From contig CAZRZS010000001.1 in assembly GCA_964604685.1 (NCBI GenBank), forward strand, positions 1 to 55,222: DNA of 55,222 nt, in the 5' to 3' direction. Shown piece by piece: positions 1-8,581 of this stretch; the first letter of the stretch is position 1, and each line of letters starts with the position of its first letter. A program made the translations under genes and the position numbers. This stretch comes from an uncultured Gammaproteobacteria bacterium. Lineage in GTDB: Bacteria; Patescibacteriota; Patescibacteriia; Magasanikbacterales; UBA922. The notes beneath the pieces are model-generated. The model did not search any database, was not told where the DNA came from, and saw only the letters and a list, made by a program, of their open reading frames with translations.

Positions 1-85
1 ACGGGGACATAAACCCCAACACGACGCTACGTAGATCTCACTTGTAAAAGCATACCATTTTTGGTATGCTTTTATTATACGAACA
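1..85 (+). repeat. Direct repeat copy A. It is the 3' part of a GC-rich candidate RNA plus its terminator, and it is cut by the window edge.
   Basis: Bases 1-85 align with 2464-2547 with only a few substitutions, a 1-nt indel (aaaccccaac vs aaacccaac) and a different terminator loop (tttt vs tagg). Confidence 0.9.
46..73 (+). terminator. Intrinsic terminator hairpin
   Basis: aaaagcatacca / tttt / tggtatgctttt. This is a 12-bp stem that includes an A-tract and a T-tract. Confidence 0.75.
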
Positions 86-93
86 CCGAGTAT

Positions 94-147
94 GCGAAAT
101 CCGCCCCGTCCGCCTACGCTAACGCTTCGGCGGACATCAGATATACG
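94..147 (-). repeat. GC-rich mosaic element, copy E1 (inverted relative to E2)
   Basis: The reverse complement carries the blocks tatat, gcgttagcgtaggcg and gcggatttcgc in the same order as E2. There is also an internal hairpin, gtccgcc(108-114)/ggcggac(129-135), with a cgc-ttcg-gcg tetraloop option. Confidence 0.55.
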
Positions 148-264
148 CGGACGAAATAGCCAAAAATTTCTTTATTAATTTTTAGATTTTTTTGATAATT
201 TATTTCAGGTCAAACATAATTTCTGATATAAGCCAATTATTATTAATTATTTAACCAGAATACT

Positions 265-684
265 ATGGAAGAACTTAAACATACTACTGAGCCACGAAAG
301 GAAATAAAAAAAATAGCTGATGAAAATTTCTCTCGTTGGAATAATGCTTTATTAACCAGAAACCCTGCGGAAATAGTAAAGCTTTATGCGGAAGATGCTA
401 CATTTTTACCAACAGTATCAAGCGAATTTAAAAAAGGGCAATCAGGCGCTGAAACATACTTTAAGCATTTTTTGGGAAAAAATCCCATTGGTAAAATTAT
501 ACAAGATGAGATTCAAGATTTAGGACTAGATTGTTATCTGCATTCTGGGATGTACAATTTTGAAATAGATTCAGATGATAATAAGCAAATAGTTGAAGCA
601 AGATTTTCGTTCGTTTGGAAATGGGATCAACAAGGGGGGTGGAGAATAATTCATCATCACTCATCAATAAAACCAAAAGAATAA
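265..684 (+). CDS. NTF2-like / SnoaL-DUF4440 (SgcJ/EcaC-type) small protein
   Basis: 139 aa. The C-terminal pattern ARFSFVWKW..GGWRIIHHHSS is typical of DUF4440/CaMKII-association-domain-like NTF2 folds. Confidence 0.6.
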   Translation: MEELKHTTEPRKEIKKIADENFSRWNNALLTRNPAEIVKLYAEDATFLPTVSSEFKKGQSGAETYFKHFLGKNPIGKIIQDEIQDLGLDCYLHSGMYNFEIDSDDNKQIVEARFSFVWKWDQQGGWRIIHHHSSIKPKE

Positions 685-688
685 AAAT

Positions 689-1696
689 ATGCCAGAATTA
701 AGTTTTAGTACTAAAATTTATCTAAACGAACAAATAAAAAAAATAAAAAGTATGATTCAAAAAAATCATGCTAAACTTTATATTGAATTCGGAGGAAAAA
801 TTATTCAAGATAAACATTCTGCTCGCGTATTGCCTGGTTATGCGGAGGATACTAAATTGGAGATACTTAAAAAAATATGTCATAAAGGAGAAGTAATCTT
901 TGTGGTTTCCGCACGGGATATTTTACGGAATAGAGTGCGTGGTGATTTTAAGACAACATATTTTAAAGAAACTGTCAGAAGTATCCGTGAGTTCAAAAAA
1001 CGTGGATTGACTATTAAATATGTGGCAATCAGTATGCTCGAACAAAACACACCTATTCCCACCAAAATTAAATTACTTGAAAAAAATTTGAAACGATTTG
1101 GAATAACTACATATCGTTTTTTTTCTATAAGTAACTATCCAAAATCTAATATCAAAATCGATGAATTGGCAATCAATCCATTTATCAAAATAGAAAATAA
1201 AATTATTGCAATTATAAGCCCGGGCGGTGGAAGTGGAAAATTTGGTATCTGTCTTAATCAACTTTATCACGAAATGTCCAACGGAGTTGTTCCTCATTAT
1301 TTAAAATTTGAGACTTTTCCAATCCATAATTTACCGATTGAACACCCGCTCAATCTGGCATATATGGCCGCGTCTGCAGATTTCTGTGACATTGTAATGC
1401 GAGACAAAAGGCACAGAAGGGCTACTTCATATAATCGAGATATAGAAAATTATGAATTGTTAAATCTTCTAGCAAAAAAATTTCCAATTCAAGGGAAAAA
1501 CTTAAAGAGCATATCATCAGCGACAAATATGGGAGCAAATATGATTACTGAAGGAATAATTAATGATGAGATTGTTCAAAAAGAGGCGGCGGCGGAAATA
1601 GCCAGAAGATTAATTCGCTATAAATTTGAGGTAACGGCGGGGAAGGAAGATAAAAAAGTATTAAACAGAGTAAGAACCATACTAAAAATGCTATGA
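689..1696 (+). CDS. UPF0371/DUF1846 family protein, short form (about the N-terminal two thirds of the usual ~490 aa)
   Basis: Family-typical motifs are KLYIEFGGK..D.H..RVLPGY, a P-loop-like SPGGGSGKF, KFETFP..NLP..HP.NLAY and SYNRDIE. It lies 4 nt after the previous ORF. Its stop overlaps the next start (ATGA). Confidence 0.7.
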   Translation: MPELSFSTKIYLNEQIKKIKSMIQKNHAKLYIEFGGKIIQDKHSARVLPGYAEDTKLEILKKICHKGEVIFVVSARDILRNRVRGDFKTTYFKETVRSIREFKKRGLTIKYVAISMLEQNTPIPTKIKLLEKNLKRFGITTYRFFSISNYPKSNIKIDELAINPFIKIENKIIAIISPGGGSGKFGICLNQLYHEMSNGVVPHYLKFETFPIHNLPIEHPLNLAYMAASADFCDIVMRDKRHRRATSYNRDIENYELLNLLAKKFPIQGKNLKSISSATNMGANMITEGIINDEIVQKEAAAEIARRLIRYKFEVTAGKEDKKVLNRVRTILKML

Positions 1697-2277
1697 AAAA
1701 TAAACTAATTATTTTTGAGGGGATTGATGGCGTTGGCAAAACAACACTATCTAAACTTTTGCAGAATAAACTCGTGAAACTAGGATTTAAAACTGTTAGA
1801 TACGAAGATATTGAAGAAAAAAATAGCGGATTCAATCAAATTAAACCATTTATTAAAAAAAATACACCTATTGATTCTAGCTTATTGTTTTATATTGCTT
1901 CTGCGATCTATAAATCACGACAGATAGAGAAATTATTGAAACATAATTGGATTATTTGCGACCGATATATCTATTCCACTTTCGCGTATCATAAAATAAG
2001 AAATGCCAATATGTCCTTAATTCCGGATATAAAAAGAATGCCGATTCGACTACCAGATTTTTTATTTTTAATAAAAGTTAATGATGATATCAGACTAAAA
2101 AGGACCAAAGCTAGATCCGATAATAATGCTTATGATTTTAAAATAAAAACAAATAGAAATCTTATAGGAAAAATGGAAAAAGAACTCGAGAAATTTAAAC
2201 CAATAATAATTAATAATTCCTACTCAACTCCTATAAATGTTGTGGAAAATATTTACCAAATAATAAACAAAGATTAA
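1693..2277 (+). CDS. tmk: Thymidylate kinase family protein (dTMP kinase-like)
   Basis: P-loop IIFEGIDGVGKTT, a CDRY motif and a basic LID-like segment RLKRTKARSD. The length of 194 aa fits the family. Confidence 0.7.
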   Translation: MKNKLIIFEGIDGVGKTTLSKLLQNKLVKLGFKTVRYEDIEEKNSGFNQIKPFIKKNTPIDSSLLFYIASAIYKSRQIEKLLKHNWIICDRYIYSTFAYHKIRNANMSLIPDIKRMPIRLPDFLFLIKVNDDIRLKRTKARSDNNAYDFKIKTNRNLIGKMEKELEKFKPIIINNSYSTPINVVENIYQIINKD

Positions 2278-2299
2278 CAAAGAATAAAAAAGTGTCTAT

Positions 2300-2535
2300 T
2301 CATAGGGGTGCTTGACATGTTTTGGCCTTTGGGCATTCACCCCTCGTATACTGCCGTCAAATAATACCTGTGGAAAAAGCAGGTTCGTTTGTTATGCGGG
2401 GACTGGCGCCCCAACTAATTTATCAGCTTATTTAGCTCCTACAAGAAGGCTACACGTTAGGCGACGGGGACATAAACCCAACACGACGCTACGTAGATTT
2501 CACTTGTAAAAGCATACCATAGGTGGTATGCTTTT
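2300..2535 (+). ncRNA. Candidate structured small RNA of unknown class, ending in an intrinsic terminator
   Basis: It is a GC-rich island in an AT-rich genome. Local stems are ggggtg(2305)/cacccc(2338) and cctg..cagg. A possible -10 tatact sits at 2347-2352. The 3' 72 nt are duplicated at 1-73. The indel between the copies breaks the frame of overlapping ORF 2312-2509. Confidence 0.35.
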
Positions 2536-2547
2536 ATTATATGAACA
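2464..2547 (+). repeat. Direct repeat copy B (partner of 1-85)
   Basis: See copy A. The two copies flank the three-gene module at 265-2277. Confidence 0.9.
2508..2535 (+). terminator. Intrinsic terminator hairpin
   Basis: aaaagcatacca / tagg / tggtatgctttt. Confidence 0.75.
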
Positions 2548-2548
2548 A

Positions 2549-2645
2549 GGGATATACGGTTCGGGGCTCGGCTCGCAACTTCGCATAAGCCCAACGTTAG
2601 GCGCAATTGCGGATTTGCCTTTTAAGGTTGGCGGACAGAAAATTT
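2549..2645 (+). repeat. GC-rich mosaic element, copy E2
   Basis: Ordered blocks: gggatata(2549), a bulged hairpin cggttcggggct..agcccaacg, GTTAGGC(2596-2602), the palindrome cgcaattgcg, gcggatttgcc(2609), ttttaag and ggcggacagaaaattt(2630-2645). Confidence 0.7.
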
Positions 2646-2674
2646 AAAATATTATCCTTAATATCTATTACACA

Positions 2675-3292
2675 ATGAACATAGATAAATCACATTATTA
2701 CGATGGAAAATTTTATGAAATTTTCATTGACCGAGCGTTGAAGGAAGTGAGAGATATTATTGTTGAACAGATAGAAGCCGACAGTACCGTAGTAGATATC
2801 GGTTGCGGCACTGGCTCCTTAGTTTTTGACCTTGCTGAAAAGTGTGAATTAGTCACAGGCATAGAGCTTTCGTCAAAAATGGTTATTCATGCTCAACGTC
2901 GCCAGCAATCAAATGGAAACAGTAATGTTAATTTCATACATGGCGATTCTAAAAGCTTACCTCATTTTCAAGATCAACAATTTGATTATGCAACTATCTC
3001 AATGGCAATTCACGAGATGCCTCCTGATTTACGCATGCAGGTTTTAAATGATGCAAAACGTATCGCCAAAAAAATAATTATTGCCGATTATGTCGTGCCG
3101 CAACCTCTCAACTTTGCAGGAATTATAACTCGCATTGTTGAGTTTCTGGCAGGTATTGAACATTTTAGGGGTTTTAGAGATTTTCAAAGAAACAACGGAA
3201 TATATCAATTACTCCAAAACTGCCAGCTTTCTATTTGCGGTGAATCAACAAACAAAAATGGAACAATAAGGGTTGTGGTTGCTCAACAATAG
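2675..3292 (+). CDS. Class I SAM-dependent methyltransferase
   Basis: Motif I VVDIGCGTGSL and the post-I acidic residue in GIELS. The 205-aa length is typical of Methyltransf_11/25 proteins. Confidence 0.8.
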   Translation: MNIDKSHYYDGKFYEIFIDRALKEVRDIIVEQIEADSTVVDIGCGTGSLVFDLAEKCELVTGIELSSKMVIHAQRRQQSNGNSNVNFIHGDSKSLPHFQDQQFDYATISMAIHEMPPDLRMQVLNDAKRIAKKIIIADYVVPQPLNFAGIITRIVEFLAGIEHFRGFRDFQRNNGIYQLLQNCQLSICGESTNKNGTIRVVVAQQ

Positions 3293-3294
3293 AC

Positions 3295-3405
3295 AAATTT
3301 CTGTCTGCTTAAAAAAGATGAGGCAAATCTGCAACTCTTCGCCAACCCTTCGGGACGTTGCACTCTGGCTCGGTGCTTCGCACGCGCCTAACTAATTATA
3401 TCCCC
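3295..3405 (-). repeat. GC-rich mosaic element, copy E3 (inverted relative to E2)
   Basis: The reverse complement reads ggggatata..GTTAGGCgcg..gcagatttgcc..ttttttaag..cagacagaaattt, with the blocks in the same order as E2. It contains C(UUCG)G-type hairpins at 3341-3361 and gtgcttcgcac at about 3374-3384. Confidence 0.7.
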
Positions 3406-3439
3406 GTCAACACATTTTCTGTGAATAACTGAAGAGGAT

Positions 3440-3781
3440 ATGAGATGGATATTAAGATCCAAAATTCATAAAGCAATTGTAACTAAAGCCGACTTAAATT
3501 ATATAGGCAGTATTACAATTGATGAAGAATTAATTGAAAAAGCTGGTTTTTGGCCTGGCGAAAAAGTTCTAGTAGTTAGCAATACTTCAGGTACGAGATT
3601 AGAAACTTATGTTATTGTCGGTAAAAAAAATTCTGGCATAATTTGTATGAATGGCGCCGCCGCCCACTTGATTAAAGTTGGTGAGGAAATAATTGTAATG
3701 GGCTTTGAATTAACAGATAAGCCAACCAAATCCAAAAATATCCTAGTTGATAAAAATAATAAATTCATGAAATTTCTATAA
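3440..3781 (+). CDS. panD: Aspartate 1-decarboxylase proenzyme
   Basis: LRSKIHKAIVTKADLNYIGSITIDEEL contains the self-cleavage G-S site. ETYVIVGKKNSGIICMNGAAAHL is also present. Confidence 0.9.
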   Translation: MRWILRSKIHKAIVTKADLNYIGSITIDEELIEKAGFWPGEKVLVVSNTSGTRLETYVIVGKKNSGIICMNGAAAHLIKVGEEIIVMGFELTDKPTKSKNILVDKNNKFMKFL

Positions 3782-7599: not shown

Positions 7600-8581
7600 A
7601 ATTTCAGTTGTCTTTTTCGGCACGCATGATTTTGCGACCCAAATCCTACAAGGACTAATTGATAGTCCTCTTATTGAAATTAAATTAGTTATTACCCAGC
7701 CAGACAAACCAGTGGGACGAAAACAAATTTTAGAAAAAACAGCGGTGAAAGTTTTGGCGGAGAAACACGGCATTAAAATAGACCAACCTGTGTCACTTAA
7801 AACTTACAAACTTATCCCGCCACAGCGGGATCCCGTTCGCTGCGGGACAAACTTGTCCCGCCGTAGCGGGATCCCGTTCGCTACGGGACAAACTTGCAAA
7901 CTTGGCGTCTGCGCTCAATATGGCCTGTTAATTCCTAAACACATTTTAGAAACACCTAAACACGGCATCATCAACGTCCACACTTCTCTACTCCCCAAAT
8001 ACCGTGGTGCCTCCCCTATTCAATCAGCCCTAATCAATGGCGAGACTGAAACTGGCATCACAATTATGAAAATGGATGCGGGAATGGATACTGGCCCAGT
8101 TTTACTCCAAAAACCGCTTAAAATAGAGCCAGATGACACTTACCCCACCTTGAGCCAAAAGCTCTCTAAAACAGCCATTTTTGCCCTTACAGAGACCTTA
8201 AATGGGTATATTTCTGGTCAAATTATCCCTCAACCACAAGATAACTCAAAAGCCACTTACACCAAGATTTTAATGCGGGAAGACGGCAAAATAAATTGGT
8301 CTAAATCAGCGCAGGAAATTTATAATCAATATCGCGGTTTGACCCCCTGGCCAGGCATCTGGACCACCTGGCAAGACCAGCGTTTAAAACTATTAGAAAT
8401 AAAATTAGCTAAGCTAGATTTATCAGCTGGCCAAGTTAGTATAGAAAATGATAAAATATATATTGGTTGCAATAATAAAGCAATTGAAATTACAAAATTA
8501 CAATTAGAAGGCAAGCAAGCCACGGATGCAAAAACTTTTATAAACGGCCATAAGCAAATTCATGGAGAAATTCTTAAGTGA
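7580..8581 (+). CDS. fmt: Methionyl-tRNA formyltransferase, carrying a 30-aa in-frame repeat-encoded insertion
   Basis: Motifs VVFFGTHDFA, TQPDKPVGRK, INVHTSLLPKYRGASPIQ and TGITIMKMDAGMDTGP. I chose the start at ATG 7580 (MSTPSNKISVVFFG) over ORF start 7550. Confidence 0.9.
   Translation: MSTPSNKISVVFFGTHDFATQILQGLIDSPLIEIKLVITQPDKPVGRKQILEKTAVKVLAEKHGIKIDQPVSLKTYKLIPPQRDPVRCGTNLSRRSGIPFATGQTCKLGVCAQYGLLIPKHILETPKHGIINVHTSLLPKYRGASPIQSALINGETETGITIMKMDAGMDTGPVLLQKPLKIEPDDTYPTLSQKLSKTAIFALTETLNGYISGQIIPQPQDNSKATYTKILMREDGKINWSKSAQEIYNQYRGLTPWPGIWTTWQDQRLKLLEIKLAKLDLSAGQVSIENDKIYIGCNNKAIEITKLQLEGKQATDAKTFINGHKQIHGEILK
7814..7903 (+). repeat. Tandem 2 x 41-nt GC-rich double-hairpin element plus a duplicated 8-mer, in frame inside fmt
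   Basis: Unit 1 is 7814-7854 and unit 2 is 7855-7895. Each has a tcccgcc-NNNN-gcggga hairpin followed by a tcccg-ttcgct-Rcggga hairpin. acaaactt occurs at 7806-7813, ends each unit, and recurs as gcaaactt at 7896-7903. The total is 90 nt, or 30 codons (IPPQRDPVRCGTNLSRRSGIPFATGQTCKL). Confidence 0.85.

Follow-up and report, generated by a model that had tools for sequence, protein, structure and literature searches.

A partly decayed, probably integron-type cassette array in a Patescibacteria genome

The window studied here is a stretch of 55,222 nt, read on the forward strand, of contig CAZRZS010000001.1 (assembly GCA_964604685.1) from an uncultured bacterium of the Patescibacteriota. Its first 3.8 kb are AT-rich and carry repeated sequences together with six open reading frames (ORFs), all in the same orientation in the ORF list; the remaining genes of the window are housekeeping genes. 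We suggest that these repeats very probably represent an array of integron-type gene cassettes that has decayed in part and is still polymorphic. In architecture and function the system is an integron cassette array, of which the window holds a remnant resembling a cluster of attC sites lacking an integron integrase (CALIN). The array would take in positions 1-3781 plus no less than 400 nt beyond the contig end on the upstream side, and would occupy a variable region of a Candidatus Magasanikbacteria genome flanked by clpB and the gene for an S11 peptidase. The initial annotation had read the repeats as cassette-boundary elements served by an enzyme encoded elsewhere, and this reading has held: the same ends surround different ORFs in relatives, the boundaries lie at integron cores, sister strains differ by one cassette and a sister species lacks the genes altogether. 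In relatives, moreover, the helix of the attC sites covaries and a recombinase gene, an attI-like site and attC arrays lie side by side.

Cassette ends, boundaries and strain alleles

Three copies of one mosaic element, E1, E2 and E3, had been described in this region, a reading that is not supported. E2 (2549-2645) and E3 (3295-3405) form a significant inverted pair, with a collinear chain of shared 7-mers covering 40 nt compared with 5.4 +/- 5.1 nt in dinucleotide shuffles (0 of 500 shuffles reached it); single blocks of the pair, taken alone, are at chance level. As had been noted, the pair encloses exactly one ORF, the gene for a methyltransferase (Table 1), and block and model searches agree that nothing similar occurs in the other 52 kb. 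E1, on the other hand, is not a third, inverted copy: its chains with E2 and with E3 do not exceed the shuffle mean in either orientation. Local alignment of E1 to E2 and E3 was likewise not significant.

Related and allelic loci, designated by L-numbers, were compared with the window. A scan with the E2 core, restricted to one genome per species, gave 45 matches, of which 41 look like chance and four, all ungapped, are true homologues in metagenome-assembled genomes (MAGs) of other Patescibacteria. Each homologous locus has a single small ORF that is preceded, at a distance of about 30 nt, by a left arm resembling that of E2; its stop codon marks the beginning of a right arm resembling that of E3. 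In L016, L021, L024, L028, L052 and L053 the left arm is 92-96% identical to that of the window over 50-53 nt and the right arm 90-98% over 49-69 nt, whereas the cargo differs: L016 encodes a 77-aa membrane protein and the other five a VOC/glyoxalase protein, in place of the methyltransferase of the window. At least four Patescibacteria species besides that of the window carry near-identical arms (92-98%) around differing single ORFs. Copies of the VOC unit from three species share 89-91% identity inside unrelated flanks; at the left edge conservation begins exactly at G/TTAGGCGC, and at the right edge it ends at ..AAC-GTTA/ (a slash marks the boundary). The left-arm boundary of the methyltransferase unit lies likewise at G/TTAGGCGC. 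Two Yanofskybacteria contigs, L028 and L053, are near-identical upstream and diverge straight after GTTA. GCCTAAC agrees with the inverse core of integrons (RYYYAAC), GTTAGGC with their core (GTTRRRY), and the crossover position with G/TT, the cassette boundary that the VOC cassette has in four loci. A metagenome scan with the right arm returned two loci only, both from the one Yanofskybacteria species already found, and scans of viral contigs with the left arm, the attI-like site and the direct repeat B gave no match in any.

The comparison of L016 with the VOC cassettes revealed a further feature. The cassette at L016:1085-1496 (locus coordinates, minus strand) and the VOC cassettes at L028:3108-3742, in L021 and in L024 carry unrelated ORFs (77-aa membrane protein versus 126-aa VOC protein) between identical flanks, which are conserved up to ATG GCA and again from AAG TAA, so that the ORF has apparently been swapped from start codon to stop codon. 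L016 (JACPNA010000010) is labelled Candidatus Woesearchaeota, a DPANN-binned contig with flanks 90-92% identical to the window arms, and reflects either sharing of cassettes across domains or a binning error. Among other cargo, L066:9068-9826 includes a Lactamase_B protein resembling the anti-Pycsar protein Apyc1, and L021 (7076-7587, reverse-complement coordinates) has a small gene pair that, judged from its sequence alone, is toxin-antitoxin-like.

Allelic contigs of the same species, retrieved via PanD, show that the methyltransferase cassette is gained or lost at these sites in sister strains. The 843-nt unit is found in the window, L006 and L067; in L068, window positions 2382-2546 are joined directly to window position 3390 onward, with both breakpoints in AAC (TAYGAAC/ and GCCTAAC/). 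A third left context (..CACATAAC/) is joined to the same right-hand sequence in L069 and a fourth is found in L002, all four contexts ending at the same panD-proximal AAC/. Because the joined ends share AAC only, the junctions in L068 and L069 are not repeat-induced misassemblies of a window-type genome. If the 843-nt unit is circularised, the predicted junction (..GCGCCTAAC/AAGGGATATACGG..) rebuilds a canonical attC, GCGCCTAAC-A-AGGGATATACGG..CGCATAAGCCC-AAC-GTTAGGCGC, with complementary R boxes of 9 bp (9/9) and a clean hairpin (bottom strand -14.8 kcal/mol, z = -3.2 for 67 nt folded, extended 9-bp R boxes included). Given the AAC breakpoints and the canonical attC of the rebuilt circle, we suggest that the methyltransferase unit is circularly permuted and was recombined via the R'' box. 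Beside the junction, L068:166-215 differs from window positions 3393-3440 by a cluster of substitutions and a 1-nt indel within about 25 nt of the panD leader, the remainder being about 99% identical.

In this model, the two arms would be the halves of one extended attC stem that was split on linearisation, the cassette having entered the chromosome through the AAC crossover of R'' and not through the G/TT of R'. Entry via R'' would account for the foreign, poor R'' of E2 and for E3 ending in the cassette's own perfect R'': the R'' box of the E2 site is that of the recipient site and the remainder is that of the methyltransferase cassette. The elements look like mosaics because E2 consists of the recipient R'', the remainder of the cassette attC and the left arm, and E3 of the right arm and the cassette's own R''.

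Alternatively, the repeats may descend from cassettes while the strain differences arose by homologous or microhomology deletion between local repeats (the direct repeats A and B, or AAC). In its favor, the window sites, which lack R' boxes, have poor folds, homologous deletions could be driven by A (53 nt) and B (about 90 nt), and the identity at the crossover is only 3-4 nt. We nevertheless regard this scenario as improbable: the B2/A junction of L068 is not derivable from a window-type array by A-A or B-B recombination, one 843-nt event suffices, with ends in R''-type boxes and an excised circle that bears a perfect attC, and four independent left contexts end at one AAC/. The arms could also be read as terminal inverted repeats of a non-autonomous transposon with a passenger gene and a transposase elsewhere, and a miniature inverted-repeat transposable element (MITE) had been proposed at the outset on these lines. 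Imperfect inverted repeats of about 50 nt around a single non-transposase ORF, recurring in several genomes, would fit such an element, but there are no target-site duplications, the 5-nt flanks differing at every locus, and in three species the conserved unit continues about 85 nt past the right repeat, through the attC hairpin to GTTA/. In addition, the limits of the segment that varies among strains do not coincide with the repeat ends and no transposase lies near any arm copy, which makes a mobile insertion cassette or a MITE very improbable.

An integron-type array is also in line with the locus of the closest sister species (S11 protein 79% identical), in which clpB is followed by 630 nt and the S11 gene, and all accessory genes, panD included, are absent. 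DNA synteny between this species and the window starts at about position 3779, the panD stop codon.

attC-type sites and the associated recombinase

The attC sites of these cassettes are best seen in L024, where sites of the form RYYYAAC-A-L''...L'-NAAC-GTTRRRY-GAAAT follow one another between successive ORFs. From these and similar sites we propose a general layout of R'' (RYYYAAC), 1 nt, L'', loop, L', 3-4 nt and R' (GTTRRRY), to which some cassettes would add inverted repeats flanking the ORF. Thirteen sites from four genomes align, including the central motifs CCCAWATTT and AAACWTCG. Their L''/L' helix is 95% paired, with 10 pairs changed on both sides, a level that 0 of 500 shuffles reach and that compares with 19-46% in slid controls; the stem is asymmetric only in its spacer (5' side 1 nt, 3' side 3-4 nt). 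Typical related sites form clean hairpins as single-stranded DNA (ssDNA; z = -2.9 and -4.6), so that covariation, the folds of the relatives and the rebuilt methyltransferase site all display the palindromic hairpin of attC sites in the 57-141 nt length class. A strict scan for R''/R' pairs finds 2-6 sites per 8-kb locus in relatives, compared with 6 in 306 kb of unrelated loci.

For detection, a family-specific covariance model (R1) built from the 13 sites served as a surrogate for the attC model of IntegronFinder. In the 55 kb of the window R1 has a single match, 2540-2607 (21.1 bits, E = 0.029; E = 0.003 on strain contig L006), which is the E2 site outlined beforehand, and it also finds sites beyond its training set in L060, L065 and L066. 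The initial annotation had suggested a test for attC sites, and the outcome with this surrogate is in keeping with its cassette-boundary reading; the Rfam search suggested alongside matched nothing. E2 is 97% identical over 33 nt to an attC of L024. E1 matches the 3' half of a bona fide L024 attC in direct orientation over 24 nt with one mismatch (blastn), and alignment of ..ACGCGGAC/GAAAT in E1 with ..ACACGAAC-GTTAAAC-GAAAT in L024 indicates the precise loss of R', a 7-nt box (GTTRRRY) that would have lain between 152 and 153. The attC model misses E1, whose ssDNA fold is modest (z = -1.2). By homology we consider E1 a probable attC remnant separate from E2 and E3; its loss of R' would have fused its cassette to the NTF2-like/DUF1846/tmk module. 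Within the window, E2 has a perfect R' and a poor R'' (TATGAAC), E3/A2 a perfect R'' and no R', and E1 no R'. A CALIN is recognised by at least two attC sites with no integrase nearby; here one site (E2) passes the surrogate model, and homology or consensus is the only means of recognising E1, the two copies of repeat A and a 3' half-site at the start of L002. A relaxed core-box scan of the window gave noise only.

The initial annotation had described GC-rich hairpins between the shared blocks; the folds do not confirm stable ones. On neither strand do E2 and E3 surpass shuffled sequences in folding (z about 0), E1 does so only weakly (z = -1.2 to -1.8), and the linear E2 site as found is at chance level. 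A reading of E2 and E3 as structured RNAs or as elements like repetitive extragenic palindromes was rejected on the same folds. It has also to be considered that the arms act in cis at the RNA level, pairing with each other or serving as a riboswitch for the methyltransferase transcript, in keeping with their complementarity, their location in the 5' and 3' untranslated regions and a promoter-like hexamer pair in the left arm (TTGGCG-16-TATTAT at 2628-2655, a match to consensus only). Since no Rfam family is matched, E2 and E3 have chance-level RNA folds, the same arms serve unrelated ORFs and the boundaries coincide with recombination cores and a presence/absence polymorphism, this explanation is highly improbable; an RNA role could coexist with mobility as a secondary function.

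As the initial annotation stated, no recombinase is encoded in the window: none was found by tblastn, in the ORF list or in a Pfam scan of the ten unassigned ORFs. The L028 locus has a truncated gene for a tyrosine recombinase, divergent from the array and some 670 nt away from it. Its full-length homologues comprise 270-271 aa, are 75-90% identical across many Patescibacteria and pass the XerA/'integron integrase' model NF040815 (241 bits, cut-off 220), and their best match among solved structures is the Vibrio integron integrase 2A3V (162 bits, XerA 152 bits). The gene is adjacent and divergent to attC arrays of the same family in four of five evaluable genomes (L028, L054-56, L065, L066). 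About 135 nt beside it are conserved in six genomes up to ..TTCGTATAGAAACGA-GTT and diverge from the next base; this candidate attI region includes ..ATTCAATTCGTATAGAAACGAGTT.. and repeated TTCGTATA boxes, its conservation ends after ..CGA-GTT, and in these respects it behaves as would be expected of an attI site. The combination of recombinase gene, attI-like site and array is found in L028 (with the truncated gene), L054-56, L065 and L066, and is absent from the window. We suggest from this arrangement that the 271-aa recombinase moves the cassettes and that the enzyme acting on the window's array would be a XerA/IntI-like tyrosine recombinase of this type, encoded outside the window. We infer further that the enzyme acts on folded single strands and that the sites in the window itself have for the most part lost their activity.

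L065 (JGI Ga0315312_1000154, 106 kb) has a recombinase 88% identical to these, an attI-like site and an attC match (7974-8064) amid genes for LacI, sugar ABC-transporter and MFS proteins. This gene set is unusual for Patescibacteria, and the platform may occur outside that group as well.

Several findings weigh against an integron-type array. The strict RYYYAAC..GTTRRRY scan finds no site in the window, whose sites are poor attCs: only E2 passes the model, and weakly (about 20 bits, noise reaching 14.7), while E1 and A lack R' and are missed. The related attCs have no extrahelical bases, their 11-bp L stem being unbulged in the 13-site alignment, and the polymorphic crossover lies within the R'' box and not at the canonical integron cleavage site. 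The recombinase falls below the cut-off of the IntI model TIGR02249 (226 versus 265 bits, in two stretches) and aligns (P0014) to VchIntIA 4-203 and 241-317 only, with no counterpart of the IntI-specific insertion (about 204-240). The window itself has neither integrase nor attI, its three-gene module with a truncated DUF1846 gene is unlike a typical single-ORF cassette, and simple cassette insertion does not predict that B is followed by two different attCs or that A is duplicated. Finally, the clpB contig of the species stops 246 nt past clpB, within an ORF, short of the left end of the array. The IntI-specific insertion of VchIntIA reportedly contacts extrahelical bases (MacDonald et al. 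2006); attCs without such bases fit an enzyme without the insertion.

Some of these findings would also suit a Xer/dif-type mechanism, in which a single Xer enzyme acts on a dif-like duplex site beside its gene and the cassettes are small integrating elements that cross over at either AAC/GTT end. This remains a live alternative, albeit an unlikely one, and it differs from an integron in mechanism, not in what the repeats are. It draws on the score with NF040815 and the missing IntI insertion, on attCs that are nearly perfect palindromes without extrahelical bases and on the crossover at the R'' end in the window's species; in addition, the sites of XerS/difSL and XerH/difH adjoin their recombinase genes. 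Against it, the Vibrio integrase ranks ahead of XerA among the structure matches, the recombinase is 75-90% identical in distant Patescibacteria and in varied chromosomal contexts, unlike a vertically inherited housekeeping Xer, and integrons are typified by arrays in which many promoter-proximal cassettes each hold one ORF and a hairpin site. We therefore favor integron-type cassettes. Beyond this, we tentatively consider a wider scenario, possible though somewhat short of an even chance, in which these loci belong to a distinct, horizontally spreading integron lineage of Patescibacteria with a minimal 271-aa integrase, bulge-free attCs that cross over at R' or R'' and a reusable cassette 'chassis'. 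In the chassis, conserved sequence would reach the start codon on one side and resume at the stop codon on the other, enclosing unrelated ORFs, a pattern that may reveal how cassettes arise; the window would be a natural snapshot, at the population level, of the system in operation.

Comparison with known systems

The array shares with integron cassettes and CALIN (Cury et al. 2016; IntegronFinder, PMC9024848) the RYYYAAC/GTTRRRY cores (complete in relatives, incomplete at the window's own sites), an imperfect palindrome (63-133 nt), G/TT boundaries, mostly single and co-oriented ORFs, the recurrence of one cassette in different genomes and arrays, and gain and loss at the strain level; the toxin-antitoxin-like pair in one related array is a further likeness, and an array without a nearby integrase, as in the window, is the situation of a CALIN. 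Its attC family differs in the absence of extrahelical bases, the asymmetric spacer (1 versus 3-4 nt) and the central CCCAWATTT/AAACWTCG motifs, and its cassettes differ in the extra inverted repeats that flank the ORF outside the R boxes, in the crossover at R'' and in the largely decayed state of the window sites. With IntI and attI (VchIntIA, PDB 2A3V) the system has in common a divergent gene, an adjacent site that ends at GTT and the top structure match; the recombinase is shorter, however (271 aa, not about 320), lacks the IntI insertion and passes the XerA model while staying under the IntI cut-off. Because the insertion and the extrahelical bases are absent and at least one crossover lies at R'', this is not a standard integron.

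Sedentary chromosomal integrons, such as those with the Vibrio cholerae repeats, likewise have a lineage-typical site around many unrelated accessory ORFs at one spot, whereas the arrays described here are short (2-6 sites), reside in Patescibacteria and mix several attC subfamilies within one array. Integrative mobile elements exploiting Xer (IMEX) at dif, e.g. the CTX phage, also combine a Xer-family enzyme with short palindromic sites and tandem units, and for the CTX phage a folded single-stranded attP is the substrate. In contrast, the units found here are promoter-proximal single ORFs, each with its own hairpin site, and not phages or islands, and the recombinase and its site behave as a mobile module. 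The integrons of Archaea (Ghaly et al. 2022, PMC9668308) are similarly known from MAGs only, mostly as attC clusters without an integrase, and their cassettes occur across distant hosts; the recombinase described here differs in its lack of the IntI insertion. Neither that paper nor the IntegronFinder 2 paper mentions Patescibacteria or the Candidate Phyla Radiation (CPR), and our full-text searches of a literature collection found no description of integron-type cassettes in this group.

For ultra-small symbionts with reduced genomes, a gene-capture platform that supplies genes such as panD, tmk or one for a methyltransferase would offer a direct way of patching metabolism. Proteobacteria are the main known hosts of integrons, to which some Archaea were added in 2022. 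A recombinase that stands between Xer and IntI, closest to IntI but without its insertion, and that is associated with sites free of extrahelical bases, makes an origin of integrons from Xer testable, and identical flanks around unrelated ORFs bear on the long-standing question of how cassettes are formed. There are practical consequences as well: such repeats break assemblies, as at the start of this contig inside repeat B, and tools that require a canonical IntI would call these loci integrase-less attC clusters or overlook them.

Other repeats and neighbouring genes

The features of the window are listed in Table 1 together with the attI-like regions of related loci.

Table 1. Coordinates of the array features, the genes around them and the attI-like regions (window positions unless a locus is given; a slash marks a boundary)
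Feature	Position	Strand	Remarks
B1, first copy of ~90-nt direct repeat	1-84	+	ends with R''-type box TACGAAC (78-84)
E1, decayed attC-type site	78-157	+	TACGAAC-A-CCGAGTATGCG ... CAGATATACGCGG-AC / GAAAT
NTF2-like/SgcJ protein	265-684	+	accessory gene
DUF1846 protein, C-terminally truncated	689-1696	+	335 of ~494 residues; profile positions 3-333 of 494
dTMP kinase (tmk)	1693-2277	+	accessory gene
Non-coding stretch 3' of tmk ('candidate RNA' of the initial annotation)	2278-2455	+	no Rfam family
B2, second direct-repeat copy	2456-2546	+	starts at R' core GTTAGGC (2456-2462); ends at R''-type box TATGAAC (2540-2546)
E2 attC, hybrid site	2540-2602	+	TATGAAC-A-AGGGATATACGG ... CGCATAAGCCC-AAC-GTTAGGC
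843-nt methyltransferase cassette, circularly permuted	2547-3389	+	present in window, L006, L067; absent from allele L068
Left (5') cassette arm	2596-2645	+	GTTAGGCGC-AA-TTGCGGATTTGCC-TTTTAAGGTT-GGCGGACAGAAAATTT
S-adenosylmethionine-dependent methyltransferase, cassette cargo	2675-3292	+	
Right (3') cassette arm	3295-3392	+	AAATTTCTGTCTGC (3295-3308), GGCAAATCTGCAA (3322-3334), GC-rich conserved insert hp1 (3335-3383), own R'' box GCGCCTAAC (3384-3392)
A2, attC-like recipient site, apparently collapsed	3386-3438	+	xxxxAAC / TAAT-TATATCCCCG-TCAAC; no L''/loop, no R'; then 5' leader to panD start codon
panD (aspartate 1-decarboxylase)	3440-3781	+	last accessory gene of variable region
Large S11 peptidase	from 3816	+	
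attI-like region	L028:2438-2580; L054:9785-10000; L057, L064, L065, L066	- (L054)	upstream of recombinase gene in L057, L064, L065, L066

The direct repeat of 85 nt pointed out by the initial annotation is confirmed, positions 1-85 being 87% identical to 2464-2548 over 85 nt without gaps. A terminator-like hairpin (AAAAGCATACC..GGTATGCTTTT) lies in B1, and this copy starts with bases, among them the core GTTAGAC, that sit upstream of window position 1 on contig L002; the window starts inside the repeat because the assembly most likely broke there. The two copies precede different attCs, E1 and E2, and the hairpin scores at noise level with the attC model. Repeat B is not a duplicated 3' end of a transfer RNA (tRNA) or transfer-messenger RNA (tmRNA), given that ARAGORN found none. 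It may be the body of a cassette without an ORF or a module exchanged via both its R' and R'' boxes, and an inverted attC remnant is a further candidate origin. Some cassettes bear inverted repeats of their own around the ORF, e.g. GGGGCAAAACTTTT ... AAAAGTTTTGCCCC, a 23-nt pair in L002 (97-119 / 236-258), pairs in L024 (reverse-complement coordinates 580-640 / 1187-1205 and 2545-2560 / 3330-3345) and one in the first cassette of L054, and the B hairpin resembles such a pair with no ORF between its halves.

To the left, short metagenome contigs of this organism continue beyond the window and bring to light a second direct repeat, A, that the initial annotation overlooked: about 140 nt before the first base of the window, L002:264-316 matches the 53 nt at 3386-3438 with 94-96% identity. 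Both copies end 1-2 nt before a start codon, and the ORFs differ, a 15-codon remnant behind A1 and panD behind A2. Judging by its motifs (R''-TAAT-L'-TCAAC, no R'), repeat A resembles an attC that has collapsed and become fused to a leader extending as far as the start codon; A2 would accordingly be such a site joined to the panD leader. A1 (L002:258-405) was rejected as a complete attC, its fold being at chance level and the model missing it. No match to A, B or the L002 upstream region was found in 560 kb of related loci, and the model explains repeats A and B only partly.

Upstream of the methyltransferase cassette, the stop codon of the DUF1846 ORF overlaps the start codon of tmk, and this ORF is probably a truncated gene fused through rearrangement. 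The candidate RNA 3' of tmk has no match across 560 kb of related loci. The stretch 2285-2550 has an RNA fold of z = -2.97, with the B2 terminator hairpin included in that stretch, and the non-coding segment was rejected as a long attC, the ssDNA fold of 2268-2466 giving z = 0.3 and no hairpin. Rfam gave nothing meaningful, whether for the whole window at gathering thresholds or for 1-3500 in E-value mode, and ARAGORN and Rfam found no tRNA or tmRNA in the 55 kb. A genomic island targeted to a tRNA or tmRNA gene is not supported, the 55 kb being without tRNA, tmRNA, Rfam family or integrase.

The closest relatives of the S11 protein are annotated as Candidatus Magasanikbacteria. On the clpB side, in the window's species, an ORF (MSTLKDKQNLDRKPMEESKP...) starts about 110 nt past clpB in L062:9047-9181 and L063:3750-3868; since both of these independent contigs break inside it, this is probably the place of another repeat or variable segment. 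Two related species have GC-rich intergenic stretches of 300-400 nt immediately before the S11 peptidase gene (L061:9600-9900 and L060:9540-9960) without an Rfam match, which could be unannotated RNAs or relics of other insertions.

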